In this document: positions 3,754 to 48,698 of the stretch, one piece after another
How positions within the stretch are numbered: position 1 is the stretch's first letter
Layout of the letters: each line of letters starts with the position of its first letter
Translations under genes and position numbers: made by a program
The notes under the pieces: model-generated
What the model was told of the DNA's origin: nothing
Databases searched by the model: none
The model's input: the letters and a program-made list of their open reading frames with translations, nothing else
NCBI GenBank assembly: GCA_965218095.1
Contig: OZ244587.1
Span: 3,488,001-3,552,000, forward strand
DNA from: Candidatus Poribacteria bacterium
Lineage (GTDB): Bacteria > Poribacteria > WGA-4E > PCPOR2b
Reading direction: 5' to 3'
DNA: 64,000 bases

Positions 3754-4833
3754 ATGAACAACGCATCTTGTCCCCTGCGTGTCGGGGTCGTCGGCTGCGG
3801 CTCTTTTGGACGCAACGCCTACGCGCGCAATGTCGTTGATAGTCCCGACACCTATCTCATTGCCCTGTGCGATGTGGACCGAGAGCGTGCCGAAGCGGTG
3901 GGTCGCGAATTCTTCGATGATCAAAATCTCAAACCGTGCCCGACAATTTACACAGATTATAAAGAGATGATTAATCAACAATCTCTTGATGTTGTCATGG
4001 TCGGCACGATGGCAGATGTTCGTCCGCGTGTGACTGTCGCTGCGCTTCACAGTGGTGCCCACGTCCTGGCTGCCAAACCGATGGCACCATCTCTGGCTGA
4101 AGCCGAAGAAATGCTTCAGGCGGCGGAGCGAACAGATCGAATTCTGATGGTTGGCTACAACTTCCGCTTCCGTGAGGATGCTCAGGCTGTGCACCGCTTT
4201 ATCCGCAGCGGTGGGGTGGGGACGCCACGCTTTGGACGCGCCTGGATTCACGTGGGCGGTGTTCCGGTATGGGGCCCACACTACATCAAGTCTCGGTCAG
4301 GGGGCGGCTCGCTCGCTAGTACCGGGGTTCATACGCTTGATCTGGGTGTCTGGTTCCTCGGCAATCCACCCCTTCTCTCTGTAGAAGGGCAAGCGAGTTC
4401 ACGTTTTGCCGACCTCCCCTCCCTGCCCACTGAATTGGAAGCCGTTCGAGACGCCTACGATGCCGAGGATCTTGTGACTGGCTACATCCGCTTTGCCGAC
4501 GATGTGACTTTGTCGGTTGAGAGCATGTGGCTGGCGCCCCTTCAGATCAGCGATAATGGCATTGATGTGTGGGGGACCATGGGCTACGCTTCGTTGTCGC
4601 CGTTGCGGTTGTTGACCTGGGAGGATGGCGATTATGTTGATTAGACAGAAAAAGTGGCGCCTGGCCTCGCCGGTTCATTCCGCGATGATGCACGGCGGCG
4701 CACACGGCAAGAGGTGCTCCACTTTATCGATTGCGTCCTTGGCCGGGGGGCGCCCATGATCACGCCGCAGGAGATGTGGACAGATTAGGCAATTATTGAT
4801 GGCATTTATGGCAGGGGGCGAAAGTTTTGGTAG
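3754..4833 (+). pseudogene. Gfo/Idh/MocA oxidoreductase interrupted by two in-frame TAG codons
   Basis: RVGVVGCGSFG Rossmann motif, HVLAAKPMA, GGGSLASTGVHTLD. The frame continues past TAG 4642-4644 (TEKVAPG...EVLHFIDCVLGR...ITPQEMWTD) and TAG 4786-4788 (AIIDGIY). Confidence 0.75.
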
Positions 4834-4890
4834 CACTCCACTAAAAATGGAAAAGGGAGAGATTTTTGTCAATTGGTTAGGATAGCCCAA

Positions 4891-5679
4891 ATGAGAATTC
4901 AAGAAATGTTTGAACTGCATGGTCATGTCGCAATTGTTACTGGTGGTGGGACTCACCTCGGGCGGGCGATGGCGACCACGCTCGGCGAATTGGGGACTGA
5001 CGTTATCATTGCCAGTCGCCGCAAATCCCTGTGTGGACAAGTTGCAGCTAAGATGCGGGAAGCAGGCATCAAATGTAGGGGCTTCGGTTGTGACGTAACC
5101 GACGAAGAGCAGGTCAACGCCCTGGTGGAGAGCACCGTCAAGATGCACGGGCAGTTGGACATCATGGTGTGCAACGCAGGTGGCTCTGCGACGACGACTT
5201 ACCTTCCCACCGCCTCGGTTGACGAGTTCATGCGCACATGGGAGATGAATGTCAAGAGCACCTATATGTGCGCGCAAGCCGCAGCCCGCGTGATGATTCC
5301 CCGACGCAGCGGCAAGATAATCACCCTCGGTTCCATCCACGGCTTCCTGACCGCTGACAAGCGCCTTTATAAGGATCTGAATTTCCACCGTTCGGGTCCC
5401 CCGTACCAGGCCGCGAAGGGCGGGATAGTGAACTTGACGCGGGCGCTGGCAGCCGAGCTTGGCGAGTATGGCATCACCGTCAACTGTATCAGCCCGGGAC
5501 AAATTCCGAAATCAACGACAGATCCGGAAATGGCGGAACGTTGCCGTCTGAGTAACCCGCTTGAACGAACAGGAACAGCAGATGACATCAAGGGTGCCAT
5601 CGCCCTCCTGGCATCTCGCGCCGGAGACTGGATCACCGGACACAACTTGGTGGTAGATGGCGGCTGGAGTATCTGGTGA
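4891..5679 (+). CDS. SDR family oxidoreductase
   Basis: VAIVTGGGTHLG, CNAG, YQAAK catalytic motif, ITGHNLVVDGG. Confidence 0.95.
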   Translation: MRIQEMFELHGHVAIVTGGGTHLGRAMATTLGELGTDVIIASRRKSLCGQVAAKMREAGIKCRGFGCDVTDEEQVNALVESTVKMHGQLDIMVCNAGGSATTTYLPTASVDEFMRTWEMNVKSTYMCAQAAARVMIPRRSGKIITLGSIHGFLTADKRLYKDLNFHRSGPPYQAAKGGIVNLTRALAAELGEYGITVNCISPGQIPKSTTDPEMAERCRLSNPLERTGTADDIKGAIALLASRAGDWITGHNLVVDGGWSIW

Positions 5680-5837
5680 GCACCAGGGCGGGTAAGCGGA
5701 TGGACCTCTGGGGAATAAGACAACATATCGATTTTTATAGGGTTTGGAGACCTCAGACCTGACAGATTTCAAAAAATTGTCGGGTCTACCACCCCTATAT
5801 GTACAGACTTATGAAATGCACTACTGAGGAGCAAAAT

Positions 5838-20240: not shown

Positions 20241-20488
20241 GGAAATGAAGGAGCCGGGTGGGTAGCTAACCGAATTTGAACCCAAGGGAGGATACCGAAT
20301 CCTCCCCGCATCAGGTTGGACAGGGAATCGGTTTTAAGCCCCTGTTATCCTCTCTATTCTAATGATCTGCTTTTGACATTTGAGGTACGATCATAGTTCG
20401 ATAGCCAAATCAACAGATTTAGAACATTATCTGTCATTTGAAGAGGATTGCGCGGATAGATCAGCAACGACCTGATATAGGAGAAATT

Positions 20489-27645: not shown

Positions 27646-27756
27646 ATCACGGATTAAACAGATGACGCGGATAGCGCGGATTTCTTGAATCTGTGGCAAT
27701 CTGCGATTCTGACAATGAAGAAATTACTATTGTGGAGGAAAGAGAAGGAAATTATA

Positions 27757-28893
27757 ATGGATGATTTAACTACTTCGCTACTACGGGATTTAGAAGAGGA
27801 AGCCACTGAAGCTAAAGTCGAAACCGAAGAAGCGTGCAACAAAATGCTCAGAGATTTGCACACTAATAACCCCCAACTCATGGCTGCAGAGGTCAAAAAA
27901 CTTAATGATGTGAACCTTACAATGTTCTTTGGCAATAGTTCCGCTGAATCCAAAAGCTGGAAAAAATACCATCACCAATTGGAGGCTCGCCTGCTCAAGC
28001 AGATTTCTTCTGAGGTGGGAAAGTTTCTTAATTGCCCAGTAGAAGCCAGTGAGTTAAAAAAGTACCTGGTAGACTCTAGAAACAAAAACAATGAGTTGAA
28101 TGGAATTGTTCATGGTCCCAAGCGGGAAATTGACAAAGTACGTCAAATCTGCGATGACTTTCAAGTTAGGACTATGACAGAGATACGGGACATGTTTATA
28201 CGAGTTACGATTGAACGCGCTCGTCACATCGGACAGCCCGTCTTACCGGATATTCGTATAACACTACTCTTCCCCACCTCTAGTACGACAAATGTACTGA
28301 TATATCATGCGGAGGCGGATGTAGTGAAGGCGGATTGCATCTATCGTCTACCATCAGTGACACTAGATACCAATGTGGTTCTCTATATGAAGAAAGGAAA
28401 GATAGTAGACCCGCTGGAACTCCGCAAGAAATGCCCGGTGGATTTAGCAGTTACACACCGAATCCGAGAGGATCTGAAACCTTTGCTGTCTGATGAGCAG
28501 TTTCTTACAGATAACTATATTAGAAAAATTCCTTCAATTATGCGCTGTTGTTTCGACAGCCGAAGCGAGCGATTCCTACTTAATCCAGAGTTCGACAAAC
28601 CGGGGAGTACCGAGTTTTTAAAGATGGCCGAATCTATTATTGACGATTTTAAACAAACCGGGGAGAATCCTCCAGAATATCAAGACTGGGATCACCTCCA
28701 CGCCCATTACATGTCTGGGAGAGATTTTTTTCTGACAGAAGATAAAAAAATTCTTAAGATTAATTGTCAGTTAAAAGAATTAGGTATTCGCGTAATGAGA
28801 TTTGAAGAATTCTTAAGATTGATTGAAAAAAATGGGATATTGTTGTATCCAAAAAATCCTGAAAATCCTAAAATCCAGTCAATCCAGATTTAG
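27757..28893 (+). CDS. Hypothetical protein with C-terminal PIN-like domain
   Basis: VTLDTNVV...E...DWDHLHAH...FFLTEDKKIL acidic pattern typical of PIN nucleases. Confidence 0.65.
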   Translation: MDDLTTSLLRDLEEEATEAKVETEEACNKMLRDLHTNNPQLMAAEVKKLNDVNLTMFFGNSSAESKSWKKYHHQLEARLLKQISSEVGKFLNCPVEASELKKYLVDSRNKNNELNGIVHGPKREIDKVRQICDDFQVRTMTEIRDMFIRVTIERARHIGQPVLPDIRITLLFPTSSTTNVLIYHAEADVVKADCIYRLPSVTLDTNVVLYMKKGKIVDPLELRKKCPVDLAVTHRIREDLKPLLSDEQFLTDNYIRKIPSIMRCCFDSRSERFLLNPEFDKPGSTEFLKMAESIIDDFKQTGENPPEYQDWDHLHAHYMSGRDFFLTEDKKILKINCQLKELGIRVMRFEEFLRLIEKNGILLYPKNPENPKIQSIQI

Positions 28894-28907: not shown

Positions 28908-30431
28908 ATGAGCGAACCACTAGAAGTATTCATTACCTATTCACATGAGAACACAGAAGCAAAAGACGAACTCATAACGCGCCTTGCTGTGATGAAGCAA
29001 CAAAATGAATTAGTAACTTGGCACGACAACGAAATGCTTCCCAGTGACAAGTGGCGTGAAGAAATTTTTTCCACGCGCCTTCCCAATTCGGATCTTTTGC
29101 TCTACCTCGTCTCCGCTGCGAGCCTTGCCTCTGAAAACTGCAATAGGGAGTTGGCAGTAGCCTTAGAAAAAAACATAAAACCCATCCCGATTATCCTTGA
29201 GGATTGCGATTGGAAAAAGCATCAACTTGGTGAATTCCAAGCTCTTCCTGACAAAGGCAATCCTATTAACGAGTGGGAATTTAAGAGCAAAGGTTGGCAA
29301 AATGTAGTAGAGGGCATCCGAAAATTCGTTGACGCAATGCAGTCTCAGGTGGATTCGCCTCCCAGTACGCCTGAAGAAGAACTACGCGCTGAATTGGCAA
29401 TCCAACAGGGTAATTTTCTGCTAATGCTCAAGCAAGTAGACAGGGCGATAGAAACCTATTCACGCGCGATTGACCTCAATCCTCGCGCTGCTCATGCCTA
29501 TTATAATCGTGGCAATGTTTACCACAACAAAGGCGAGTTTGGACGCGCCATCACAGATTATACCAAAGCAATAGAATTGAACCCTAATCTTGCGGAAGCC
29601 TACAACAATCGGGGTAATGCTTACATGGACAAAGGCGATTCAGGGAGTGCCATTGCAGACTATAATAAAGCGATACAACTCGACACCAATTGTGCCAGTG
29701 CCTATTACAATCGTGGTGTGGCTTACGGAGAAAAAGGCGATACTGACCGTGCCATCGTAGACTATACCAAAGCGATAGAACTAAATCCTGATTATACCGA
29801 GGCCTATAACAATCGCGGTCTTGCTCACAGTAAGACAGGCAATCTTAATTGTGCCATTGCAGACTATGACAAAGCGATACAACTGCGACCAAATGATGCC
29901 GAAGCCTATAACAATCGCGGTCTTGCTCATAGTAAGACGGGTAATCTTGACTGTGTCATTGAAGACTTTACCAAAGTGATACAACTGCGACCAAATGATG
30001 CCGAAGCCTATAACAATCGTGGAGTGGCATACCACAGAAAGGGCGAAATTAATCTTGCCATTAAGGACTATAACCGGACGATGGATTTGAATCCCGATTT
30101 TGTTGCCAAAGTCTATTGCAATCGTGGCGAGGCGTGGTTACATCTGAGAGAATGGGGCAAAGCCAAATCAGACCTGACTGCTGCCAGAGACATGGGTGTA
30201 GATATCATTACCTCGTTTCATAACGAATACGCAAGCGTCTTGGACTTCGAGCAGAAACACGATGTTCAGCTACCAGCAGACCTCGCCGCCATGCTGACAC
30301 CCCAGGGAGTCGCCATAGGAGAAGAAGTAGAGCGGGAAGCCCCCCATGAATTGGCGAGCGATTTTGAAATCGTCTTAGACGAGATAGTAAGAAAATACGA
30401 TCGAGCATGGAAAACTCTAGCCAAACCTTGA
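28908..30431 (+). CDS. TIR-TPR protein 1 with antitoxin-like C-terminal tail
   Basis: VFITYSHEN...WHD...LVSAASLASENCNREL (TIR, catalytic Glu present), about 8 TPRs, shared cap, tail DEIVRKYDRAWKTLAK. Confidence 0.9.
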   Translation: MSEPLEVFITYSHENTEAKDELITRLAVMKQQNELVTWHDNEMLPSDKWREEIFSTRLPNSDLLLYLVSAASLASENCNRELAVALEKNIKPIPIILEDCDWKKHQLGEFQALPDKGNPINEWEFKSKGWQNVVEGIRKFVDAMQSQVDSPPSTPEEELRAELAIQQGNFLLMLKQVDRAIETYSRAIDLNPRAAHAYYNRGNVYHNKGEFGRAITDYTKAIELNPNLAEAYNNRGNAYMDKGDSGSAIADYNKAIQLDTNCASAYYNRGVAYGEKGDTDRAIVDYTKAIELNPDYTEAYNNRGLAHSKTGNLNCAIADYDKAIQLRPNDAEAYNNRGLAHSKTGNLDCVIEDFTKVIQLRPNDAEAYNNRGVAYHRKGEINLAIKDYNRTMDLNPDFVAKVYCNRGEAWLHLREWGKAKSDLTAARDMGVDIITSFHNEYASVLDFEQKHDVQLPADLAAMLTPQGVAIGEEVEREAPHELASDFEIVLDEIVRKYDRAWKTLAKP

Positions 30432-30844
30432 AGTATTTGACAATTGAGGACATTCTGAGGGTTGCCAAGGGGCAGGTGGGTAGCTATCAGTTGTTGAATG
30501 AAAATCAGTTACACTATTTGGTTGAAATAGTCGGTGAAAAATTAGGTGATACAGAACTGTTTCCGACTTTGCCCAAAAAAGCTGCTGTATATGCCCATCA
30601 CATTATTACTGGACATATATTTTCCGATGGGAATAAACGTATCGGCCTGACTTGTGCGCTCGCGTTTTTAGTTTTGAATGGCTGTTCTCTTCATCGCAAC
30701 ATTGATGATTCGATTATTGAGCTTGGCTTTAAGATTGCGGATGGGACGATAACCGATCTGGAGATAATCGCCGAGGATTTACAATCATGGATTCAGCGAC
30801 AGACGTATGAATCGGTTGTATTTACATTAGATCCGTTTAACTGA
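30428..30844 (+). CDS. doc: Death-on-curing (Doc/Fic family) toxin
   Basis: MKYLT.EDI, LFPTLPKKAA, HIFSDGNKRIG. The TTG start overlaps the upstream TGA (TTGA). Confidence 0.88.
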   Translation: MKYLTIEDILRVAKGQVGSYQLLNENQLHYLVEIVGEKLGDTELFPTLPKKAAVYAHHIITGHIFSDGNKRIGLTCALAFLVLNGCSLHRNIDDSIIELGFKIADGTITDLEIIAEDLQSWIQRQTYESVVFTLDPFN

Positions 30845-31042
30845 GGGCGGAAATTGTCAGAATCGCGAATTAGACCGGAGTTGACACAGGTTACGCTGTT
30901 TTAATCCGTGGCAATCTGTGATTCAGACAACGCAGAAATCTCCCTTGTGGAAAAACCGCCGCCCTGAAATCCTGAGAATCCTAAAATCCAGTAAATCCAG
31001 ATTCAGACAATGAGGAAATCGCCATTGTGGAGAACAAAAAGT

Positions 31043-32485
31043 ATGGCAAAAAAAGAGCCGCGCCGTGTCAAAACTCTGAGCGAGTTTATAGAATGGGCAG
31101 CACAATTCAGGGACGGACGATATCTGTTTCGTGGTGTTTCAAACGACGCCTACAAAATAGAGGCATCTGCTTACCGCCGCCTGCGAGAAGCGGACAGAAA
31201 TAATCCGAGTAAGCTACTCAAAATCAATCAGGAATTGATAGAAAAAGCACGAGGTCGGGGACACGATCAGAAAAACGGTCAGCGACTATCCGATCTGGAA
31301 CTACTTGCAGAACTTCAGCACTTCGGCGCAGCCACCTGCCTGATAGACTTTACACGCAGTGCATTGGTCGCGCTCTGGTTTGCCTGCCAACAAAGTGCCA
31401 AGGGAGAAGCAAACGGTAAAGTATTCGCTGTCCGTAGCGATGATCCGGCACGCTTGAAAACGGTTAATCCGGAATTGATAAAAAAAGATATTGACCACTT
31501 TCTCAACTTGGATGAAAACGATAACTATCTGCTATATCAATGGGATCCCAAACTTCAGAATAATCGCATCATCGCCCAGCATTCAGTTTTCCTATTTAGC
31601 GGTGCCCAAATTGAAGCAGAGGCTGAATGTGTAATCATAAAAAGTAGCAAGCAAGACATCCTGACATCTCTGGATAAAATATCAGATATCGCTGAAGAGA
31701 GTATTTATCCTGACTTTGACGGCTTCGCTCGCGTACATGCCCACGATAAACCCTACATTGAACCCAACGCCCACGGCTATCTGCGACGCGGTATTGAGGC
31801 ACAGCAAAATAATAATCTGGATGATGCTATCGCCTACTACACTGAAGTCATACGGTTAGAGCCGGACCCCGGCATTGTTGCCAATGCCTGTTACAATCGC
31901 GGCGTGGCTTACAGGAAAAAGGGAGATTATGACCGTGCCATTGCAGACTATACCAAAGCGATAGAACTCAATCCCTATTATGCCAACGCCTATAACAATC
32001 GCGGCGTGGCTTACAGGAAAAAGGGAGATTATGACCGTGCCATTGCAGACTATACCAAAGTGATAGAACTCCAACCCAATTATGCTATAGCCTATATCAA
32101 TCGCGGCGCTGCTTACGGGGAAAAAGGTGATTATGACCGTGCCATCGCAGACTTTATCAAAGCGATAGAACTCAATCCCTATTATGCCAACGCCTATAAT
32201 AATCGCGGCGTGGCTTACAGGAAAAAGGGAGATTATGACCGTGCCATTGCAGACTATACCAAAGCGATAGAACTCAATCCCTATTATGCCAACGCCTATA
32301 ACAATCGCGGCGTGGCGTGGTTACACCTGCAAGCATGGGAAAAAGCCCAAGCCGACCTGACGACTGCCAAAGATATGGGGAGGGATATCACTGCTTCATT
32401 TCATAACGATTACACAAGCGTCCCAGACTTTGAGCGGAGAAATGGGGTTAAGCTACCGGCAGACCTTGCTGCCATGTTGCTTTGA
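31043..32485 (+). CDS. FRG-TPR protein 1
   Basis: YLFRGV, LAELQHFGAATCLIDFT...ALWFAC, NNRIIAQHSVF, IYPDFDG; near-identical 102-bp TPR repeats; shared cap. Confidence 0.9.
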   Translation: MAKKEPRRVKTLSEFIEWAAQFRDGRYLFRGVSNDAYKIEASAYRRLREADRNNPSKLLKINQELIEKARGRGHDQKNGQRLSDLELLAELQHFGAATCLIDFTRSALVALWFACQQSAKGEANGKVFAVRSDDPARLKTVNPELIKKDIDHFLNLDENDNYLLYQWDPKLQNNRIIAQHSVFLFSGAQIEAEAECVIIKSSKQDILTSLDKISDIAEESIYPDFDGFARVHAHDKPYIEPNAHGYLRRGIEAQQNNNLDDAIAYYTEVIRLEPDPGIVANACYNRGVAYRKKGDYDRAIADYTKAIELNPYYANAYNNRGVAYRKKGDYDRAIADYTKVIELQPNYAIAYINRGAAYGEKGDYDRAIADFIKAIELNPYYANAYNNRGVAYRKKGDYDRAIADYTKAIELNPYYANAYNNRGVAWLHLQAWEKAQADLTTAKDMGRDITASFHNDYTSVPDFERRNGVKLPADLAAMLL

Positions 32486-32639
32486 ATCTCCCGATAAATC
32501 GGGATTCTCGGAACGGAACCGATCTTATCGGGGCTGACACCCGAGCGATAAGCATCACGCCGACGAGTCTTTTTGAATCCGTGTCAGCCGTTAATCCGCG
32601 ATAATCCGCGATTTTGACAATGATACATACTAACATAAC

Positions 32640-33334
32640 TAGGAGTTACGCACTTGGTCAGAAAATAGATTATAATATAGACTATGAATCCACCCAAATG
32701 CAATGAATATGACTATACCAACTTTCTGATTACGACTTCCAGATACACAGTTGTACTGAGGCTGCCAGAGTCCAACCCCAAAAAATAACGACAACCGTTA
32801 CAATGCCGCAAAATGGGATAAGCAATTCTAGGCTAACGCAGGCGAATTACCTCCGGGAACTGGAGAAGTGTCATTGACAACTAGCATCTAAGGCAATGAG
32901 CGCATTGAACGCCGCGTATGACAGTCTATAATCTACAATTTCCTCCCTTAGCCCAAAAGAGTAAATCTCATTTGTTCCTGCTGATTTGAGCGTTCAACTG
33001 CGTTAATTCTACATATGACTCGTCGGTGCAAATCTTTATCATTATGCACGCTAACTTTTTTGGTTCATGTAAAAAGAAAGTGCAAAGCGCAAGGAGAAAC
33101 CGAGTTTTCAAGAAAAAACTCGGTTTCTGTTGCACGATTTCTTAACATCAGCCACTTTTTTTTGCGTTGGCATTGCGTTGGCATTTTTATGAAAAATGAA
33201 TTGGTGTGCCCTGATGACACAAATAAAGCAGAACCTAAGCATTTACTGTAGTTGCCCGATTCATCGGGTGTCATGTTGCTTTGAATCCCGATCTCCGCAT
33301 CGGGGGTTTTGAGCATTCAACTGCGTAAGTCCTA
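32640..33334 (+). mobile_element. Non-autonomous IS701-like element, copy 1
   Basis: TIRs TAGGAGTTACGCA / TGCGTAAGTCCTA, 5-bp direct repeat ATAAC, decayed transposase start MNPPKCNEYDYTNFLI...SCTEAARVQP. Confidence 0.8.
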
Positions 33335-33882: not shown

Positions 33883-33962
33883 AACACAAACGAAAATTCT
33901 AGCTTAAGCAATTAAATTTCAATCAACAGATCGCGCTTTAATATCCGTCGGGAGAGTTGATT

Positions 33963-38224: not shown

Positions 38225-39616
38225 ATGAGCGAACCACTAGAAGTATTCATTACCTATTCACATGAGAACACAGAAGCAAAAGACGAACTCATAACGCGCC
38301 TTGCTGTGATGAAGCAACAAAATGAATTAGTAACTTGGCACGACAACGAAATGCTCCCCAGTGACAAGTGGCGTGAAGAAATTTTTTCCACGCGCCTTCC
38401 CAATTCGGATCTTTTGCTCTACCTCGTTTCCGCTGCGAGCCTTGCCTCTGAAAACTGCAATAGGGAGTTGGTAGTAGCCTTAGAAAAAAACATAAAACCC
38501 ATCCCGATTATCCTTGAGGATTGCGATTGGAAAAAGCATCAACTTGGTGAATTCCAAGCTCTTCCTGACAAAGGCAATCCTATTAACGAGTGGGAATTTA
38601 AGAGCAAAGGTTGGCAAAATGTAGTAGAGGGCATCCGAAAATTCGTTGACGCAATGCAGTCTCAGGTGGATTCGCCTCCCAGTACGCCTGAAGAAGAACT
38701 ACGCGCTGAATTGGCAATCCAACAGGGTAATTTTCTGCTAATGCTCAAGCAAGTAGACAGGGCGATAGAAACCTATTCACGCGCGATTGACCTCAATCCT
38801 CGCGCTGCTCATGCCTATTATAATCGTGGCAATGTTTACCACAACAAAGGCGAGTTTGGACGCGCCATCGTAGACTATAACAAAGCGATAGAACTCAAAC
38901 CCGATTATGCCGGTGCCTATTACAATCGTGGTGTGGCTTACGGAGAAAAAGGCGATACTGACCGTGCCATCGCAGACTATAATAAAGCGATACAACTCGA
39001 CACCAATTGTGCCATGGCCTATTACAATCGCGGTAACGTTTACATAGACAAAGGCGATGTTGGTTGTGCCATCGTAGACTATACCAAAGCGATAGGACTA
39101 AATCCTGATTATACGGAAGCCTATTACAATTGGGGTAATGCTTACTACAACAAAGATGAGTTTGACTGTGCCATCGTAGACTATACCAAAGCGATAGAAC
39201 TGAATCCTAATCTTAGGGAGGTCTATAACAATCGCGGTCTTGTTCACGGTAACACAGGTCATCCTGACCGTGCTATTAAAGATTTTACCAGAGCGATAGA
39301 ACTGGATCCTAATTATACCGGAGCCTATTACAATCGCGGAGTGGCATATTACAAAAAGGGCGATTTTGAGCGCGCCATTGAGGATTTTGACAAGGCTTTA
39401 CAACTGAAACCTGATTATGCCATGGCCTATGGCAATCGCGGCGAGGCATGGTTACACCTGAGAGAATGGGAAAAAGCCAAAGCAGACCTAATGGAGGCCA
39501 GAGTCATGGGGATAAATATCATCGCTGTGTTTCGTAACGACTACGGAAATGTTGCGGACTTCGAGGGTAGAAACGGGGTTAAGCTGCCGGCAGACATCGC
39601 CGCCATGTTGCTTTGA
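38225..39616 (+). CDS. TIR-TPR protein 2 (no antitoxin-like tail)
   Basis: First ~640 nt almost identical to the 28908 gene; TPR units differ afterwards; ends AAMLL. Confidence 0.9.
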   Translation: MSEPLEVFITYSHENTEAKDELITRLAVMKQQNELVTWHDNEMLPSDKWREEIFSTRLPNSDLLLYLVSAASLASENCNRELVVALEKNIKPIPIILEDCDWKKHQLGEFQALPDKGNPINEWEFKSKGWQNVVEGIRKFVDAMQSQVDSPPSTPEEELRAELAIQQGNFLLMLKQVDRAIETYSRAIDLNPRAAHAYYNRGNVYHNKGEFGRAIVDYNKAIELKPDYAGAYYNRGVAYGEKGDTDRAIADYNKAIQLDTNCAMAYYNRGNVYIDKGDVGCAIVDYTKAIGLNPDYTEAYYNWGNAYYNKDEFDCAIVDYTKAIELNPNLREVYNNRGLVHGNTGHPDRAIKDFTRAIELDPNYTGAYYNRGVAYYKKGDFERAIEDFDKALQLKPDYAMAYGNRGEAWLHLREWEKAKADLMEARVMGINIIAVFRNDYGNVADFEGRNGVKLPADIAAMLL

Positions 39617-39918
39617 ATCTCCCGATAAATCGGGATTCTCGGAACGGAACCGATCTTATCGGGGCTAACACCCCAGCAATAAGCATCACCGTCGGCGGTT
39701 TTTGAATCTGTGTCATCCTTTAATCCGTGGCAATCTGCGATTCAGACAACGAAGAAATCGCCACAGTGGAGAAACCGACGAACTGCTCCGCTTGGATAGA
39801 CATATCCAAACGATATAGGAATAAGAAACGATACATCCCAAAATCCTGAAAATCCTAAAATCCTGTAGATCCTGATTCAGACTCTCCCCCGAAGAAATTG
39901 GGTTGTAGAGGACAAATC

Positions 39919-41392
39919 GTGAGTACACAAAACCCATCCAATCCCCAAGACGACCTAAACGCGGTTTTGGAAATCATCCGTGAGGTAGCAGAAAAATCAA
40001 CCAGCGACAACTACATCTACCGCGGCGAACCCAGACGCCATAGAAAAGTGTCGTCAAGCCTTTGGCGTGAATGCAAGAGAAAAATGCGGACTGAGGACTT
40101 TGATATACAGGCTATCGAAGGGCTAATACTGGACTCGGCTAAAAACTATACCCCCGAACAAGAGGAAATTGAAATCTGGGCTGAACTCCAACACTATGGG
40201 GGTCACACTAATCTTATAGACTTTACGACGGACAACCATATAGCCCTCTTCTTCGCCTGCGATCGTTTCTTTGACAAACCGGGCAGGGTTATTTTCTTGG
40301 GAGAAGGAGCGCAGAACGAAAATCGAGTTGAGAAAAAACCCCAGAATCCACGAAACCGCATCATAGTCCAGAAGAGTGTATTCATTCGACCACCCACAGG
40401 TTATGTTGAGCCAGACGATATAATCACTATCCCAGCACACCTCAAACAACCCATATTAAGTTACTTGGAAAAACATCACGGTATATCTAACGAAACCATC
40501 TATAACGACCTTCATGGGTTTATTAGAAATCAGGACATGCACCAGATTGCCTGTATAGAGTTTTATGACGGTTCAATCCAGCAACAAACAGGAGACCCGG
40601 AGAATGAAGACACAAGCGAAACTTGAGCATTACGATAAGGCAATTGAGCACTATAGCAAAGCAATAGCACTGCAACCCAATTTTGTCATCGCCTATAACA
40701 ATCGTGGCATTGCTTACGGTGATAAAGGCGAGTATGACCTTGCCATTGAAGACTTTAACATGGCAATAAAACTGAAACCGGATTATGCTATCGCCTACAA
40801 CAATCGCGGGGCGGTTTACCGCATCATAGGCGAGTATGACCGTGCGATCGAAGACTGTAATAGGGCGATAGAGCTCGATCCCGGTTATGCTGAGCCTTAT
40901 AGCAATCGTGGTGCGGCTTATCGGGAAAAAGGCGAGGAGGACCGCGCTATCGCAGACTATGACAAGGCGATACGACTGAAACCTGATTTTGTTGAGGCAC
41001 ATTACAATCGTGGAGTTGCTTACATCAAAAAAGGCAATTTTGACCGTGCCATCGTAGGCAATACCAAGGCAATAGAACTCAAACCTGACCTTGCACATGC
41101 CTATAATAATCGTGGTAATGCTTACACTCAAAAAGGCGAGATTAACCGTGCCATTGAAGATTATAACAGAGCGATAGAACTGAAACCTGACCTTGCTGAG
41201 CCTTATACTGGTCGGGGGGTGGCGCGGTTACACCTCAGAGAATGGGAAAAAGCGAGAGCAGACCTGACGGATGCCAAAAACATGGGAGTGGATATTACCG
41301 CTGGGTTTCATTATTTCTATGAAAGTGTCCCGGACTTCGAGGGTAGAAATGGGGTGAAGCTACCGGAAGACATCGCCACCATGTTGCTTTGA
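39919..41392 (+). pseudogene. FRG-TPR protein 2, frameshifted near 40565-40625
   Basis: FRG half (YIYRGE, LQHYGGHTNLIDFT) and TPR half lie in different frames; the paralog at 46959 is continuous. Confidence 0.75.
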
Positions 41393-41547
41393 ATCTCCCG
41401 ATAAATCGGGATTCTCGGAACGGAACCGATCTTATCGGGGCTGACACCCCAGCAATAAGCATCACCGTCGGCGGGTCTTTTTGAATCCGTGTCAGCCGTT
41501 AATCCGCGACAATTCGCGATTCTGACAATGATACATACCAACATAAC

Positions 41548-42248
41548 TAGGAGTTACGCACTTGGTCAGAAAATAGGTTATAATATAGACTATGAATCCA
41601 CCCAAATGCAATGAATATGAATATGACTATACCAACTTTCTGATTACGACTTCCAGATACACAGTTGTACTGAGGCTGCCAGAGTCCAACCCCAAAAAAT
41701 AACGACAACCGTTACAACGCCGCAAAATGGGATAAGCAATTCTAGGCTAACGCAGGCGAATTACCTCCGGGAACTGGAGAAGTGTCATCGACAACTAGCA
41801 TCTAAGGCAGTGAGCGCATTGAACGCCGCGTATGACAGTCTATAATCTACAATTTCCTCCCTTAGCCCCAAAGAGTGAATCTCATTTGTTCCTGCTGATT
41901 TGAGCGTTCAACTGCGTTAATTCTACATATGACTCGTCGGTGCAAATCTTTATCATTATGCACGCCAACTTTTTTGGTTCATGTAAAAAGAAAGTGCAAA
42001 GCGCAAGGAGAAACCGAGTTTTCAAGAAAAAACTCGGTTTCTGTTGCACGATTTCTTAACATCAGCCACTTTTTTTTGCGTTGGCATTGCGTTGGCATTT
42101 TTATGAAAAATGAATTGGTGTGCCCTGATAACACAAATAAAGCAAAACCTAAGCATTTACTGTAGTTGCCCGATTCATCGGACGTCATGTTGCTTTGAAT
42201 CCCGATCTCCGCATCGGGGGTTTTGAGCATTCAACTGCGTAAGTCCTA
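41548..42248 (+). mobile_element. Non-autonomous IS701-like element, copy 2
   Basis: Near-identical to 32640-33334 apart from a 6-bp ATGAAT duplication; same ATAAC direct repeat and same flanks. Confidence 0.8.
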
Positions 42249-42661: not shown

Positions 42662-42907
42662 CGCAGATAACGCCGATTTAATCCGTGTCCTCCTTTAATC
42701 CGTGACAATCTGCGATTCAGACAGTGAGGAAATTGGGATTGTGGAGGAGGCCACGAATTGCGTGTGTAAATTGTCTGAATCAGGATTTTCAGGATAGAAG
42801 GATAAACAGGATAAGAAAGGATGCGTCCAAAAACCCTGAGAATCCCCAAATTTTGTTGCCGACAATACACCACACTGAAGGACAGGAGGGAAAGGAAGAA
42901 ATTTTTG

Positions 42908-44536
42908 ATGGAAGAAATAAACTGGGAAATTCCGAGAATATCGGACGATCCAATAAAACTAACGCTAAAGAGTGGTGATCAATTATTCATCATAGGAGCT
43001 AATGGTTCGGGGAAATCGGCGTTAATACAGCGATTTGTTTCGGAGAATAGAGGCAACAGGGTTAAGCGGATAGCTGCACATAGACAAACATGGTTCGACT
43101 CAGGAAGCATCGATCTTACACCCGCAGGGCGCCAAGAACATGAGACAGACACGCTAAACTACAATAGAAACAATGAAGCTCGATGGAAGGATCTCAGGGG
43201 GGGCGAGGGTTTATCTGTTGTCTTATTTGACTTGATTGCTAAAGAAAACGCTATTAACAAGTCTATTGCTCGCCATGTACGTAATCAAGATACTGACCAA
43301 GCATTAGAGTTTTCTGCTGAATCGCCATCGCCGTTCGATCAGATAAATGAGTTGCTTGCTCGCGGCAGACTGACGGTTACGATCGAAAACTCTGATGACC
43401 AGAATCTACTCGCAAGGCACCCACAGGGGGAGCCCTTCAGCATTGCAGAAATGTCAGATGGCGAACGGAACGCAATGATCATCGCAGCGCACGTTATTAC
43501 GGCTGAACCTGAAACGGTGTTCGTGATCGACGAACCGGAAAGACACCTCCACCGATCCATTATCCAGCCATTTCTCTCGGCGTTGTTCGCCCTAAGAAGG
43601 GAGGACTGTACATTTATTATCGCAACCCATGAGATCGCACTGCCGGTCGCCAACCCGGATGCACAAGTTCTCATGCTCCGATCATGCCAGTGGAGCGGTA
43701 AACAATGCCATGCTTGGGATGCCGAAGTCTTGAAGCCGAACTCTGAACTACCGGAGGACCTCAAACTCGCAATCTTGGGATCCAGAAAAAGGATCCTCTT
43801 CGTGGAAGGCCAGCTTGGCAGTTCAGATTTTTCACTCTACACTACTCTCTTTTCCGGACTTTCCGTGATCCCAAAGGAGAGTTGTGAGGAGGTCCAAAAG
43901 GCGGTGCTTGGGTGGCGAGGATCTCAAGAAATCCACCCTGTACATGTAGAAATATTTGGACTCATTGACCGAGATAACCGGACAGACGAGGATGTAAAGG
44001 AACTTGCCAAAAAGGGTGTATTCGCTTTAGAAGTGTATTCGGTTGAAGCTCTCTACTATTGCTCAGACGCTATTGCTGCTGTTGCTGAACAACAAGCAAA
44101 ACTCCGTGATGAAGATGAAAGTAAACTCATCGAGTCGGCCAGGCAAAAGGCAGTTGGTGTTCTGAAAGGCCACGCGGAGGAAATGGCGGCGCGGATGTGC
44201 GAACGCCAAATACAAAAACTCACTCTGTCGAAAATTCCGGGCTGGAAGTCAATTAAGGATAACCCAACTCAACCAATCAGCGTATCTATTGATCCAATAG
44301 CCTATTCTGAGGAGCTTAATTACTTCGATAAACTTGTCGATGATGAATACCTAGATCAACTTATTGCCCGTTACCCAGTGCATAAAAGCTGCGCTCTTAC
44401 AACTATCGCGAAAACCCTCAAATGCTGCGATAGAAACGACTATCAGCAGATAGTTCTCGCCCAAATTCAGAAAGACAGTCAATTGGCTTGCAAGTTCAAA
44501 GAGCGTATTGGCCTACTTTCTGAAACACTGGATTAG
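42908..44536 (+). CDS. ABC-type ATPase fused to a TOPRIM/DUF4435-like domain (OLD/PARIS-like defence protein)
   Basis: GANGSGKS, MSDGER, IDEPERHLH, ATH, followed by ILFVEG...D and GLIDRD. Confidence 0.85.
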   Translation: MEEINWEIPRISDDPIKLTLKSGDQLFIIGANGSGKSALIQRFVSENRGNRVKRIAAHRQTWFDSGSIDLTPAGRQEHETDTLNYNRNNEARWKDLRGGEGLSVVLFDLIAKENAINKSIARHVRNQDTDQALEFSAESPSPFDQINELLARGRLTVTIENSDDQNLLARHPQGEPFSIAEMSDGERNAMIIAAHVITAEPETVFVIDEPERHLHRSIIQPFLSALFALRREDCTFIIATHEIALPVANPDAQVLMLRSCQWSGKQCHAWDAEVLKPNSELPEDLKLAILGSRKRILFVEGQLGSSDFSLYTTLFSGLSVIPKESCEEVQKAVLGWRGSQEIHPVHVEIFGLIDRDNRTDEDVKELAKKGVFALEVYSVEALYYCSDAIAAVAEQQAKLRDEDESKLIESARQKAVGVLKGHAEEMAARMCERQIQKLTLSKIPGWKSIKDNPTQPISVSIDPIAYSEELNYFDKLVDDEYLDQLIARYPVHKSCALTTIAKTLKCCDRNDYQQIVLAQIQKDSQLACKFKERIGLLSETLD

Positions 44537-44720
44537 GTAGAAAACCCGCAAACCGAATAGTTAGAACCTCCATTTTTAACCCAAGTTCGTCGCTTCCAGA
44601 TCCTCTCCAGCATCAAACAGGATGCGTATCTCGTCTGCTCTGTGAAATTTGGTTGACACCTATTCACCGAAAGATTATTATGACACCAAAAGAAATTCGC
44701 ATCGTGAAGGAGAAGAAGTC

Positions 44721-46268
44721 ATGCTAGAACTGAACTCAGCACCCGTTGGCTTTGATTACGCTTATAAAAGTGGGCCTAACAGAGATACTACCAAAGCGAT
44801 AGACCCGAAACTTGACGATGCCGAGGAATATAATACCCGCGGCATCGCTTACAGCGAAAATGGCAAGCAAGATAGGGCAATCGCAGACTATAACAAAGTG
44901 ATAGAACTCAAACCCGATTATGCCAACGCCTACAACAATCGCGGCATTGCTTACGGGGTAAAGGGCGATTTTGATCGTGCCATCACAGACTTTAACAAAA
45001 CGATAAAACTCAACCCGAATAGTGCCAATGCCTATAACAATCGTGGCGTTGCTTACGGGTTAAAGGACGAGGTTGACCTTGCCATCGCAGACTATAACAA
45101 AGCGATAAAACTCAAACCCGATTATGCCGCAGCCTATAACAATCGTGGGATTGCTTACCGCGATAAAGGCGATTTTGACCGTGCCATTGCAGACTATAAC
45201 AAAACGATAAAACTCAAACCTGATTATGCCGCAGCCTATAACAATCGTGGTGCTGCTTACGACAAAAAACGCGATTTTGACCTTGCCATCGCAGACTATA
45301 ACAAAGCGATAGAACTCAAACCCAATTATGTCGAGCCATATACCAATCGTGGGGTTGCCTACGACAAAAAACGCGATTTTGACCTTGCCATCGCAGACCA
45401 TAACACGGCGATAAAACTCAAACCCGATTATGCCGAGGCCTATAACAACCGCGGGATTGCTTACTTCAACAAAGGCGATTTTGACCGTGCCATTGAAAAC
45501 TATAACACAGCGATAGAACTCAAATCCGATGATGCCATAGCCTATTACACTCGCGGTGTAACGCGCTTACACCTACAAGCATGGGAAGAAGCCAAATCCG
45601 ACCTGACGACTGCCAGAAACATGGGAGTGGATATCACCGCAGAGTTTTGTAACATCTACGGAAGCGTTGCAGGCTTTGAGCAGATAACAGGTATTCGGTT
45701 ACCTGCAGACATCGCCGCAATGTTGACACCCCAAGTAATTGCCATGCGAAATAAAGAAGCGTGGGAGGCGACTCACGAATTGGCGAGCGATGCCGAAATT
45801 GGCTTAGACGAGCTCTTAGAAAACTATGCGCGGGCATGGAAAACTCTAGCAGAAGTGCCTCTGCTAGAAGGAAGTTCTGTTCACGCAGATTTAGATGACC
45901 TCGCTCCAACGGACATAGAGAAGGCACTGCAAAAAGTACGAGCAGAAGCAGAAGAAGAGAGGAGACTTGATCAAGAACTAGATGCCATCCCAGAAACGGC
46001 TTACCAAGATGTGGATCGGTTTTTGAAAACAATCAACAAACTCGTACCCCTACCCGATATTATGCCCTTAGACAACGGTGAAATCTGCCTCGAATGGCGA
46101 GAAGGACAAAAGATATTTACCTTGAGTTTTGGTGGAGATGGGCACATTGTTTTTGCTGGAATCTTCGGCGCGGAGAATCACACGCGTGGGATATTAACCT
46201 TCTCAATGCCTCACCTTATCGCCGTTATTGGCATGATTACAAGTCTTTACCTCCATTATGATTATTGA
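44721..46268 (+). CDS. TPR protein with shared cap, antitoxin-like helix and an extra C-terminal domain
   Basis: About 8 TPRs, cap, DELLENYARAWKTLAE, then IPETAY...PLPDIMPLDNGEICLEWRE...LSFGGDG. Confidence 0.8.
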   Translation: MLELNSAPVGFDYAYKSGPNRDTTKAIDPKLDDAEEYNTRGIAYSENGKQDRAIADYNKVIELKPDYANAYNNRGIAYGVKGDFDRAITDFNKTIKLNPNSANAYNNRGVAYGLKDEVDLAIADYNKAIKLKPDYAAAYNNRGIAYRDKGDFDRAIADYNKTIKLKPDYAAAYNNRGAAYDKKRDFDLAIADYNKAIELKPNYVEPYTNRGVAYDKKRDFDLAIADHNTAIKLKPDYAEAYNNRGIAYFNKGDFDRAIENYNTAIELKSDDAIAYYTRGVTRLHLQAWEEAKSDLTTARNMGVDITAEFCNIYGSVAGFEQITGIRLPADIAAMLTPQVIAMRNKEAWEATHELASDAEIGLDELLENYARAWKTLAEVPLLEGSSVHADLDDLAPTDIEKALQKVRAEAEEERRLDQELDAIPETAYQDVDRFLKTINKLVPLPDIMPLDNGEICLEWREGQKIFTLSFGGDGHIVFAGIFGAENHTRGILTFSMPHLIAVIGMITSLYLHYDY

Positions 46269-46671
46269 TCCAAGAGAAAGACTCAGTCGTTTCGTACTGA
46301 GCAGAAATGAGTTTCGTCCTTCTGATCAGACTGTTAGGCCTAAAGCATTTATCCCGCCAAAAAACAAACGGTTGTCCGTTTACCGTACCTCAACACTGAG
46401 CGAAGACGAGATTTGGTCAACTGGTAACGAGTTTGTCGCTGAACCGAGAGGTAAGACCCTTTACGGTCGAGCAGACCTTTTGGCACAAGATGTTTACGCT
46501 CTCCGGCAAAAGGTTGAACCAGAAACTTCTATACATCCTTTACATGCTGATATTATACTGTGGCCAGACGGACGGGACGACATTTTATTTTTGGCAACTC
46601 AACTCGTACTACGGTCGAAATTCGTTTCAAGAACGTCATCCCCGAACGCTTTAGTCGGGGACGGGAAATGA
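46258..46671 (+). CDS. Small hypothetical protein, possible ADP-ribosyltransferase-like toxin
   Basis: Overlaps the upstream stop; R...AF.P....LSVYR...HADI pattern resembles ART/Tse2-like folds (from recall). Confidence 0.5.
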   Translation: MIIDPRERLSRFVLSRNEFRPSDQTVRPKAFIPPKNKRLSVYRTSTLSEDEIWSTGNEFVAEPRGKTLYGRADLLAQDVYALRQKVEPETSIHPLHADIILWPDGRDDILFLATQLVLRSKFVSRTSSPNALVGDGK

Positions 46672-46958: not shown

Positions 46959-48698
46959 ATGAACTCACAAAACGACCTAAGCAAAATTAGGGAAAAAATC
47001 AGCGAGATAGAGGAAAAATCAGCCAACGGCGACTATATCTACCGCGGCGAACCTGAATGTTATGAGAAAGTCTCCTCGAACCTCTACCGCCAATACGAGA
47101 AAGAAATTGAGGCGGAGCACTTTGATATAGAGGTTGTCCAAACAGAAATTCTGAACGAGGCTAAGAAATATGCCCGCGAGACCGACAACGAATTTGAAAT
47201 CATGCCCCAACTCCAACACTGCGGAGGTAAAACTAACCTGATAGACTTTACGACCGACTACCTGATAGCGCTCTTCTTCGCCTGTGATGGCTTTCTTGAC
47301 AAACCCGGTAGGGTTATCTTGTTGGGAGAAAGAGCACGGAGAGAAAACCAAGTCGAGGAACCTCCGAATCCAATAAATCGCGTCAAAGATCAGAAGAGTA
47401 TATTCGTTCAACCGCCCAAGGGCTTTATTGAACCAGAACTAGACAATATAATTGATATTCCCAAATGCCTCAAACAGCTCATGTTAAACCACTTGGAAAA
47501 GTACCACCGCATATCTACCGAAACCATCTACAATGACCTTCATGGATTTATTAGAAATCAGGACCTCCATCAAAGCGCCTACACGGAGTTTTTTAAAGGT
47601 TTGACGTGTCAAAAGAGAAAGCAGTATGATAAAGCCATTGAGCATTATACCACAACGATAGAACTCAAACCTAATTATGCCGAGGCCTATAACAATTGCG
47701 GCATTGCTTACCGCAACAAAGGCGAGATTGACCATGCTATCGAAGACTTTAACACAGCGATAGGACTCAAACCTGATTATGCCGAGGCCTATAACAATCG
47801 CGGCATTGCTTACCGCGACAAAGGCGAGATTGACCATGCTATCGAAGACTTTAACACAGCGATAGAACTCAACGATTATGCCCCGGCCTATAACAATCGC
47901 GGCAATGCTTACCGCAACAAAGGCGAGATTGACCATGCTATCGAAGACTTTAACACAGCGATAGAACTCAAACCTAATTATGCCCCGGCCTATAACAATC
48001 GCGGCATTGTTTACCACGACAAAGGCGATTTAGAACGCGCTATCGAAGCCTATACCAAAGCGATAAAACTCAACAATTATGCCCCGGCCTATAACAATCG
48101 CGGCACTGCTTACCACGACAAAGGCGATTTAGAACGTGCTATCGAAGACTATAACACAGCGATAGAACTCAAACCACACCTTGCCGAGGTCTATTACAAT
48201 CGCGGCAATGCTTACCGCAACAAAGGCGAGATTGACCATGCTATCGAAGACTATACCAAAGCGATAGAACTGAATCCCGATTATGACGAGGCCTATAACA
48301 ATCGCGGCACTGCTTACAACGACGAAGGCGATTTTGACCACGCCATCGAAGATTTTAACAAAGCGATACAACTCAAACCATACTTTACCGAGGCCTATAA
48401 CAATCGCGGGGTGGCTTACGGCAAACCGGGTGAGTACGCCCTTGCCATCGAAGACTATACCAAAGCGATAGAACTGAATCCCGATTATGCCATCGCTTAT
48501 AACAATCGCGGTGAGGCGTGGTTACACCTGCAAGAATGGGGTAAAGCCAAAGCCGACCTGACGACTGCCAAAAACATGGGGGTGGATATTATCACAGCGT
48601 TTCGTAACGACTACGTAGACATCTCGGACTTCGAGCAGAGAAATGGCGTCGAGTTACCGAAAGACATCTCCGCAATGCTAAGGCGACCGCAGACATGA
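46959..48698 (+). CDS. FRG-TPR protein 3
   Basis: YIYRGE, LQHCGGKTNLIDFT, ALFFACD; about 10 TPRs, including two 33-aa units; shared cap. Confidence 0.9.
   Translation: MNSQNDLSKIREKISEIEEKSANGDYIYRGEPECYEKVSSNLYRQYEKEIEAEHFDIEVVQTEILNEAKKYARETDNEFEIMPQLQHCGGKTNLIDFTTDYLIALFFACDGFLDKPGRVILLGERARRENQVEEPPNPINRVKDQKSIFVQPPKGFIEPELDNIIDIPKCLKQLMLNHLEKYHRISTETIYNDLHGFIRNQDLHQSAYTEFFKGLTCQKRKQYDKAIEHYTTTIELKPNYAEAYNNCGIAYRNKGEIDHAIEDFNTAIGLKPDYAEAYNNRGIAYRDKGEIDHAIEDFNTAIELNDYAPAYNNRGNAYRNKGEIDHAIEDFNTAIELKPNYAPAYNNRGIVYHDKGDLERAIEAYTKAIKLNNYAPAYNNRGTAYHDKGDLERAIEDYNTAIELKPHLAEVYYNRGNAYRNKGEIDHAIEDYTKAIELNPDYDEAYNNRGTAYNDEGDFDHAIEDFNKAIQLKPYFTEAYNNRGVAYGKPGEYALAIEDYTKAIELNPDYAIAYNNRGEAWLHLQEWGKAKADLTTAKNMGVDIITAFRNDYVDISDFEQRNGVELPKDISAMLRRPQT

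Follow-up and report, generated by a model that had tools for sequence, protein, structure and literature searches.

The stretch analysed here, called the window throughout, comprises 64,000 nucleotides (nt) of DNA from a Candidatus Poribacteria bacterium (assembly GCA_965218095.1, contig OZ244587.1, positions 3,488,001 to 3,552,000 of the forward strand). At 28908..30844 it holds two overlapping genes. The first, TIR-TPR1, encodes a TIR-TPR protein to which a short C-terminal tail is fused, and the second encodes a Doc toxin with an intact catalytic motif. In the relatives compared, Doc of this family is strictly linked to the tail. The tail was analysed as a candidate antitoxin peptide for Doc. 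The features of the two genes are as follows.

28908..30431, forward strand: TIR-TPR1 open reading frame (ORF), 507 amino acids (aa), with a TIR head, a TPR array, a conserved C-terminal cap, a flexible linker and a putative Doc-type antitoxin tail (ORF list; Pfam TIR_2 and TPR families; AlphaFold2 model with a mean predicted local distance difference test score, pLDDT, of 74).
28926..29348, forward strand: TIR domain, residues 7-147, ThsB-like (Pfam TIR_2; PADLOC ThsB; weak TIR matches in the PDB).
29373..30296, forward strand: TPR superhelix, residues ~156-463, including the cap ..LPADLAAML (pLDDT, Foldseek, motif census).
30297..30359, forward strand: linker, residues 464-484, TPQGVAIGEEVEREAPHELAS, low-confidence and probably flexible (break in the DNA alignment; pLDDT <50 at 467-489).
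30360..30428, forward strand: putative Doc-type antitoxin tail, residues 485-507, helix 486-504 (alignment of 31 sequences; contacts in the complex model).
30407..30844, forward strand: Doc toxin ORF, 145 aa from ATG 30407 or 138 aa from TTG 30428 (Pfam, NCBIfam, PDB profiles, start-codon comparison).
30614..30640, forward strand: Doc catalytic motif HIFSDGNKR (read in the ORF; alignment of 31 relatives).

The head of TIR-TPR1 was assigned by Pfam to TIR_2 (residues 7-112, 47.8 bits against a cut-off of 28), followed by seven TPR stretches, and by PADLOC to ThsB (E 4.2e-23, residues 7-147). Its matches to TIR structures in the PDB are weak (best E 2.9e-4), and a phmmer search of the head against the PDB returned 0 matches. 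The ..NCNxEL.. segment is kept in 5/5 close TIR heads; its Glu may be the catalytic residue. In the AlphaFold2 monomer, pLDDT exceeds 90 over most of residues 190-460, indicating a confident TPR solenoid. The best Foldseek match of the model is an 8-repeat consensus TPR (E 7e-18), and the others are generic TPR superhelices.

A paralogue of TIR-TPR1 lies in the window at 38225..39616 (463 aa, 79% identity), and no Doc is found beside it. TIR-TPR1 is 44 aa longer and ends in ..ELASDFEIVLDEIVRKYDRAWKTLAKP. At the DNA level, its homology to this paralogue and to two other TPR genes stops after ..GCCATGCTG, at 30293/30294, and the linker starts where homology to the tail-less paralogues ends. A Logan contig from a public run covers 30159-30377 with 0 differences, although the run may be the source sample itself; the junction is therefore not an assembly slip. 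An assembly artefact at this point was ruled out by the contig together with the identical junction in many genomes. A search of sequencing runs gave none with at least half of the words of the 64-kb stretch. Contigs from RNA libraries span the tail and the start of doc, but the relative to which they belong has its antitoxin as a stand-alone gene, and carried-over DNA may be their source; they are not taken as evidence of expression. Promoters and terminators were scanned for, and the counts were not above those in shuffled sequence.

The Doc ORF scores above the curated cut-offs of both Pfam Fic (38.3 bits; cut-off 24) and NCBIfam TIGR01550 DOC_P1 (45.4 bits; cut-off 38.65). A Doc profile matched the E. 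faecalis Doc 9vzc (E 8.9e-11) and the P1 Doc 3k33 (E 1.3e-6) in the PDB. The motif conforms to the definition HXFX(D/N)(A/G)NKR (PMC13034048). Residues H70, F72, G75, N76, K77 and R78 are invariant in 31/31 relatives. Two starts are available: TTG 30428 overlaps the TGA of TIR-TPR1 (30429-30431) in a 4-nt overlap, and ATG 30407 gives a 25-nt overlap. In 7/10 relatives examined, the upstream ATG is excluded by an in-frame stop, and in these an ATG occupies the codon homologous to TTG 30428, with an ATGA overlap (in full at locus L032). TTG 30428 is thus a plausible start. The genome of the window contains one Doc of this kind. All its close relatives (at least 58% identity) are in metagenome-assembled genomes of Candidatus Poribacteria, and the next matches, at 37% identity or less, are in other phyla.

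The observation made in an earlier sequence-only reading of this DNA was thus confirmed. That reading had estimated the extension beyond the near-twin at about 40 aa, found no doc beside that twin and recognised the intact HIFSDGNKR motif of a gene that Pfam and NCBIfam now also assign to Doc. The TGA/TTG overlap that it described is favoured by the stops and homologous ATG codons of the relatives. It had also stated that no separate antitoxin gene is present, and no other ORF of at least 25 aa around Doc was found to look like one.

To address how regularly tail and Doc occur together, two sets of loci were compared: loci from 61 related genomes, and 40 Poribacteria loci from genome contigs. 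The sets overlap in species, and their counts are not independent. An upstream ORF with ..[DE]xI..xY[DE]RAWK[TI]L.. at its end was present at 40/40 Poribacteria Doc loci. In the 61 genomes, a full-length tail match was found directly upstream of Doc at 31/31 loci of the Doc family; among these, Doc is broken in two, and the tail lies 110 nt away in one. A tail-less Doc of this family was never seen. The arrangement is that of an antitoxin ORF directly upstream of an overlapping toxin, with the toxin never found without it. By these comparisons, the tail of TIR-TPR1 is a conserved portable element and not a chance read-through. A 30-aa tail profile searched against representative proteins matched 25 clusters; long TPR carriers are probably masked by the 50% identity at which the clusters were formed, and the figure is no estimate of range.

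In the 31 sequences, Y497, A500, W501 and L504 are invariant (Y34, A37, W38 and L41 of the 44-aa tail). Conservation of the tail as a by-product of the overlapping doc frame was considered and rejected. Y34 and R36 are both conserved, and both lie upstream of either Doc start, where the overlapping frame cannot explain their conservation; the tail is also kept where doc is lost.

The tail-Doc complex was modelled with our own alignments (31 Docs, 31 tails). The interaction prediction score from aligned errors (ipSAE) was 0.87 in each of three runs, and the best control scored 0.00. In calibration, the ipSAE mark was reached by 58/80 solved complexes and by 2/110 mismatched pairs; with alignments of our own, this calibration holds only roughly. 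At least 90% of the contacts agree between runs, and the pLDDT of the partner is 68-69. The modelled contacts join tail residues 22-42 (TIR-TPR1 485-505) to Doc residues 9-23, 75, 77-78, 81-90 and 95-108. The tail is thereby predicted to lie against the catalytic loop of Doc and its surroundings, including G75, K77 and R78.

The tail is carried by proteins of very different size. It occurs on a 69-aa small protein, on ~100-aa proteins with one or two TPRs, on long TPR proteins of up to 1113 aa, on TIR-TPR proteins (540, 591 and 1052 aa), on FRG-TPR proteins (622 and 641 aa) and on TIR domains alone (202-210 aa). Twenty database proteins matched residues 440-507 of TIR-TPR1 at 62% identity or more; eight of these have TIR_2, three FRG and nine only TPRs. 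In the Doc tree, the mode of tail attachment tracks the clades (junction-type or stand-alone in 9 rows, TIR-only in 2, direct-TPR in 20), and the heads (TIR, FRG or none) are swapped within clades on the same tail.

The 69-aa small antitoxin has 193 relatives of 37-121 aa. Its first ~45 residues, termed the N-module, occur with three different C-terminal tails. The N-module gave 86 matches in 39/61 genomes, 11 of them inside ORFs of at least 279 aa. At locus L021, a 296-aa TPR protein (4633..5523) is fused via ..MLTPQ.. to the N-module with tail type 2 (..LERAKADIKAGRLKRW..), followed by an overlapping toxin gene of the ParE/RelE family (5504..5779; Pfam ParE_toxin, E 8.5e-9). As these reading frames indicate, fusion of a TPR protein to an antitoxin is not limited to Doc. 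One N-module thus occurs with three tails, type 2 of which lies beside ParE/RelE, and it follows that toxin specificity resides in the variable tail. In NCBIfam, neither the small antitoxin nor the type-2 tail form (P0184) had any match, and the type-3 form (P0183) produced noise below the threshold only.

TIR-TPR1 has kept the linker (..EAPHELASD..) and the Doc-type tail and has lost the N-module; an EATHE-type linker is common to TIR-TPR1 and the small antitoxins. Locus L048 represents the intermediate state, in which a TPR protein is fused to a whole small antitoxin. At locus L118, the split and fused states differ in one codon, TAG versus CAG (the latter in fused relatives), and both ORFs are in the same frame. 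The arrangement occurs there two times in tandem (2450-2464 and 4457-4471): a TPR gene ends in ..EMLTP-TAG, and a 69-aa tail ORF follows in frame three codons on. The TAG may have split the gene as a plain nonsense change, or it may be a site of stop-codon read-through.

The linkage holds in one direction. The 61 genomes contain 57 full-length tails, of which 31 are beside Doc; one lies at the end of a contig, and the other 25 lack Doc. Eight of the 25 precede stumps of Doc, consisting of its first 12-31 codons or of residues 1-13 joined to 114-130. At loci L109, L113, L115 and L116 of genus g11 (at about 2660-2720 in each), the opening ~12 codons of Doc remain behind a TIR-plus-tail ORF. An unrelated gene beginning ..HDIIDNR..EKLVEHI.. 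comes next at L109, L115 and L116; at L113 this sequence is found only further downstream, past a stop-rich stretch. Judged from the stumps, this is the site at which Doc was replaced. Retention of the tail, loss of Doc and the presence of stumps are, as read from these remnants, the usual decay pattern of toxin-antitoxin pairs. Toxicity of Doc and its action on EF-Tu would follow by analogy with P1 and Salmonella Doc; repeated loss of Doc with the partner kept lends indirect support.

Another six Doc-less tails (the copy in the window and L103-L107) run into a 139-aa domain, X, and then into an overlapping ORF, Y, of 125-137 aa. In the window these are:

44649..46268: second TPR protein, 539 aa, with the same junction, a drifted tail (..NYARAWKTLAE, 45726-45854) and then domain X.
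46258..46671: ORF Y, 137 aa, overlapping the ORF of tail and X.

In the window copy, the consensus D of the tail has become A. By hand count, this copy and L104 share ~63% identity over 30 tail residues and ~85% over domain X. No Pfam, NCBIfam or PADLOC family was found for X or Y, and all their hits in a protein atlas were clusters without a name. AlphaFold2 gave no usable model for Y (mean pLDDT 33.5). Doc may have been replaced here by X and Y as a toxin-antitoxin-like pair of another kind.

The nearest known systems are the Phd-Doc pairs of phage P1, Salmonella and E. faecalis (PDB 3K33, 3DD7, 9VZC). They share with the present locus the Doc family and its catalytic motif, and in both the antitoxin gene lies upstream and overlaps. 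A peptide of Phd residues 52-73 alone inhibits Doc, and P1 and Salmonella Doc arrest growth by phosphorylation of EF-Tu (PMC9207808). The bent C-terminal helix of the antitoxin sits in the concave surface of Doc (PMC13034048). Neutralisation by a C-terminal helix of ~22-28 residues at that surface (PMC9207808, PMC13034048) is the mode that the model predicts here. Unlike in Phd-Doc, the tail comes without a DNA-binding domain of Phd/YefM or AbrB type and is carried by a 463-residue TIR-TPR protein. Pfam detected no Phd/YefM N-terminal fold in the tail, the 69-aa protein or TIR-TPR1.

Another related design is PanA_Phd-C:Doc of Corynebacterium doosanense (PMC10440598), where a short Doc-neutralising element is likewise attached linearly to an unrelated domain, the accessory domain is not itself needed for neutralisation, and Phd-C neutralises Doc on Panacea or on a SUMO carrier. 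The principle of one accessory module combined with different toxin-specific elements is described there also, and Ernits et al. (2023) propose accessory antitoxin domains to be sensory (PMC10440598). The term 'TPR' has 0 occurrences in the main text of that paper, though its supplementary tables might list such nodes. Here the accessory parts are not Panacea; they are TPR arrays headed by TIR or FRG, or else the ~45-aa Poribacteria-specific helical module. In CapRel, toxin and antitoxin lie in one chain. CapRel-type systems resemble the present locus in having the antitoxin element covalently on a larger protein, in the phage-defence context and in the idea of a trigger acting on the antitoxin part; they differ in that the present toxin has a gene of its own, which overlaps that of the antitoxin, and the antitoxin is joined to a different defence protein. 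No Doc antitoxin fused to TPRs or to TIR came up in a literature search, made in part at the level of titles and abstracts. A defence protein with a tethered peptide antitoxin for Doc would probably be a variant of the design in which a linear neutralising element is placed on an accessory domain.

Taken together, the comparative and predicted-structure evidence supports the interpretation that the tail of TIR-TPR1 is a tethered Doc antitoxin peptide, to which we assign a probability of roughly 60%. The last ~25 residues would correspond to the C-terminal helix by which a modular, Poribacteria-specific family of antitoxins neutralises Doc. A flexible linker of ~20 residues would tether this helix to the TIR-TPR protein, which would take the place of the usual small N-terminal helical module. 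Upon translation of the overlapping ORF into Doc, the tail would capture the toxin as an amphipathic helix in the groove by the catalytic loop, and each TIR-TPR1 molecule would carry one silenced Doc kinase. If the tail were displaced, severed at the linker or ceased to be produced, Doc would be free to phosphorylate EF-Tu, and translation would stop; we infer that release of Doc is the activating step. The likeliest role of Doc would be that of a back-up growth-arrest effector of the defence island in which the locus lies.

Several observations weigh against this interpretation. Phd-Doc complexes have been solved, and the score of the complex may partly reflect the model's memory of them. In the AlphaFold2 monomer, the tail helix 486-504 reaches a pLDDT of only ~57-67. 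Pfam gave nothing for the 44-aa tail or the 69-aa small antitoxin at E up to 1. The tail profile retrieved no Phd chain from the PDB at E up to 10, its best match (E 0.23) being unrelated. Comparison with the C-termini of small antitoxins of distant Docs, of which only 3 were usable out of 27 outgroup loci, was weak (hhalign probability 2.8%; one BLASTP match of E 0.001). Pfam found no DNA-binding family in 17 partner proteins (TIR-TPR1 and the partners of 16 relatives), which leaves classical type II autoregulation unaccounted for. The remaining eleven of the 25 Doc-less tails belong to genus g11, where they lie in ORFs of 69-72 aa at a distance of 10 nt behind TPR genes. Their sequence is well conserved, and neither Doc nor a stump of it is present; two of the genomes (G051, G036) gave no Fic/Doc match at all. 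These orphan tails suggest a Doc-independent role or a very recent loss of Doc and form the chief argument against a role directed at Doc alone.

The sequence-only reading had taken the tail for a Doc antitoxin resembling the helices of Phd/AbrB-type partners and linked to doc. The antitoxin assignment is supported by the linkage, by the tail being the toxin-specific part of a small antitoxin and by the modelled groove, for which the complex prediction gave the score cited above; the likeness to Phd/AbrB helices could not be detected by sequence with Pfam, PDB profiles or hhalign. Doc of this family is always found with the tail, and 25/57 tails have no Doc beside them. A lineage-wide modular family, a second, Doc-less tail in the window and tails in Doc-free genomes formed no part of that reading.

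The window as a whole is a defence island, with a fused PARIS AriAB, FRG-TPR genes (PADLOC PDC-S15), the TIR-TPR pair and a type IIG restriction-methylase. It is the long ORF at 23983 that scores as the latter; in another long ORF, at 33957, a 1.7-kb stretch is 86% identical to it. A third long ORF lies at 20438. The fused PARIS AriAB is a single 571-aa ORF (42821..44536; PADLOC E 4.4e-59; Pfam AAA_21 and DUF4435). FRG and TPR parts occur once as two overlapping ORFs (39898..40626 and 40565..41392) and twice as one fused ORF (31010..32485 and 46959..48698). Just upstream of TIR-TPR1, a 402-aa ORF (27685..28893), whose stop is 15 nt before the TIR-TPR1 ATG, gave a sub-threshold Pfam match only (E 0.006) and no NCBIfam or PADLOC match.

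In a motif census, the TPR cap ..LPxDIAxML was found in six ORFs of the genome, all within the window. Three tail-less TPR genes share a 3' flank of ~158 nt that is 87-94% identical (32483-32640, 39614-39749 and 41390-41548); pieces of it occur at four other sites of the genome, one of which adjoins a truncated N-module copy at ~5326600. The first 200 codons of the TIR-TPR paralogues (28908-29507 and 38225-38824) are identical at 597/600 nt, and codons 201-400 show only about 68-82% identity per 40-codon block. So abrupt a mosaic points to a head that has recently undergone gene conversion, or to repeats that have diversified.

The setting bears on what the carrier is for. TIR-TPR1 could be, as proposed in the sequence-only reading, an immune sensor with a releasable effector, its TPR array binding a phage ligand so that the tail is displaced or the linker exposed and Doc set free, with the TIR domain giving a second output directed at nicotinamide adenine dinucleotide (NAD). 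The neighbouring type IIG enzymes, PARIS AriAB, ThsB-like TIR and FRG/PDC-S15 genes, the receptor-like mosaic of TIR-TPR1 and its paralogue and the swapping of TIR, FRG or no head on the same tail within Doc clades all accord with such a sensor, as does the proposal of sensory accessory domains (PMC10440598). In the largest Doc clade, however, most partners are ~100 aa long, have one or two TPRs and lack an effector head, and we regard sensing followed by release as possible and put it forward tentatively.

The same shuffling could be a neutral by-product of recombination. Selection would then act on the cassette of tail plus doc; the parts upstream of the linkers (..MLTPQ.., ..EATHE..) would be exchanged freely, and the TIR-TPR part would give Doc only translation and stability. 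Stand-alone and fused partners are nested in one well-supported Doc clade (98/98), a single codon separates the fused from the split state at L118, and a SUMO carrier suffices for the function of Phd-C (PMC10440598). Yet the carrier in all 17 scanned partners is a TPR/TIR protein or the N-module, never a DNA-binding domain, and the junction without the N-module is common to loci whose Docs are only 69-86% identical, which argues that the fused form has lasted. A neutral origin thus appears doubtful.

A broader proposal is that the TIR- and FRG-TPR proteins of Poribacteria share a C-terminal 'socket' (..LPxDIAxML-TPQ..) for exchangeable toxin cassettes (Doc, ParE/RelE, X-Y) that are held through antitoxin peptides, with TPRs as sensors and the tethered toxins as effectors released on a trigger. 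We offer this as a rather speculative idea. If true, it would be a modular sensor-effector design of which the literature search found no description for bacterial toxin-antitoxin systems.

Toxin-antitoxin modules are known stabilisers of mobile DNA. The tail could in the same way guard its gene by addiction, if a frameshift, nonsense mutation or deletion in TIR-TPR1 removed the tail and left Doc, and loss of the costly defence gene were thereby punished. In many loci the tail sits at the very C-terminal end of a long ORF (1.5 kb in TIR-TPR1), a position that would suit this function. Since the Doc start overlaps the upstream ORF, however, premature stops may also lower the translation of Doc, and in many cases Doc has gone and its partner is retained, the reverse of what one would expect a guard to leave; a guard function seems unlikely.

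That the tail is mainly Doc-independent, for example a regulatory peptide of TPR proteins with Doc binding as a secondary property, would fit the eleven g11 tails with neither Doc nor stump, the two genomes lacking a Fic/Doc match and the TIR-plus-tail proteins that keep the tail after replacement of Doc by another gene, but is highly improbable, as the tail drifts where an extra domain follows it in place of Doc (~63% against ~85% for the domain) and Doc never occurs without the tail.

The tethered antitoxin peptide remains the interpretation that we prefer. The Doc-antitoxin tail and the ~45-aa antitoxin module are newly defined and have no Pfam or NCBIfam match, and annotation labels their partners only as TPR proteins. 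Toxin-antitoxin pairs are increasingly viewed as effectors of phage defence, and how they are switched on is mostly unknown. The locus offers concrete constructs (the whole protein, the tail by itself and the protein without its tail) with which to ask if a sensor made of repeats can control a toxin by way of a tethered antitoxin. The predicted antidote peptide of a translation-blocking kinase would be physically part of TIR-TPR and FRG-TPR defence proteins across a phylum of uncultivated sponge symbionts.

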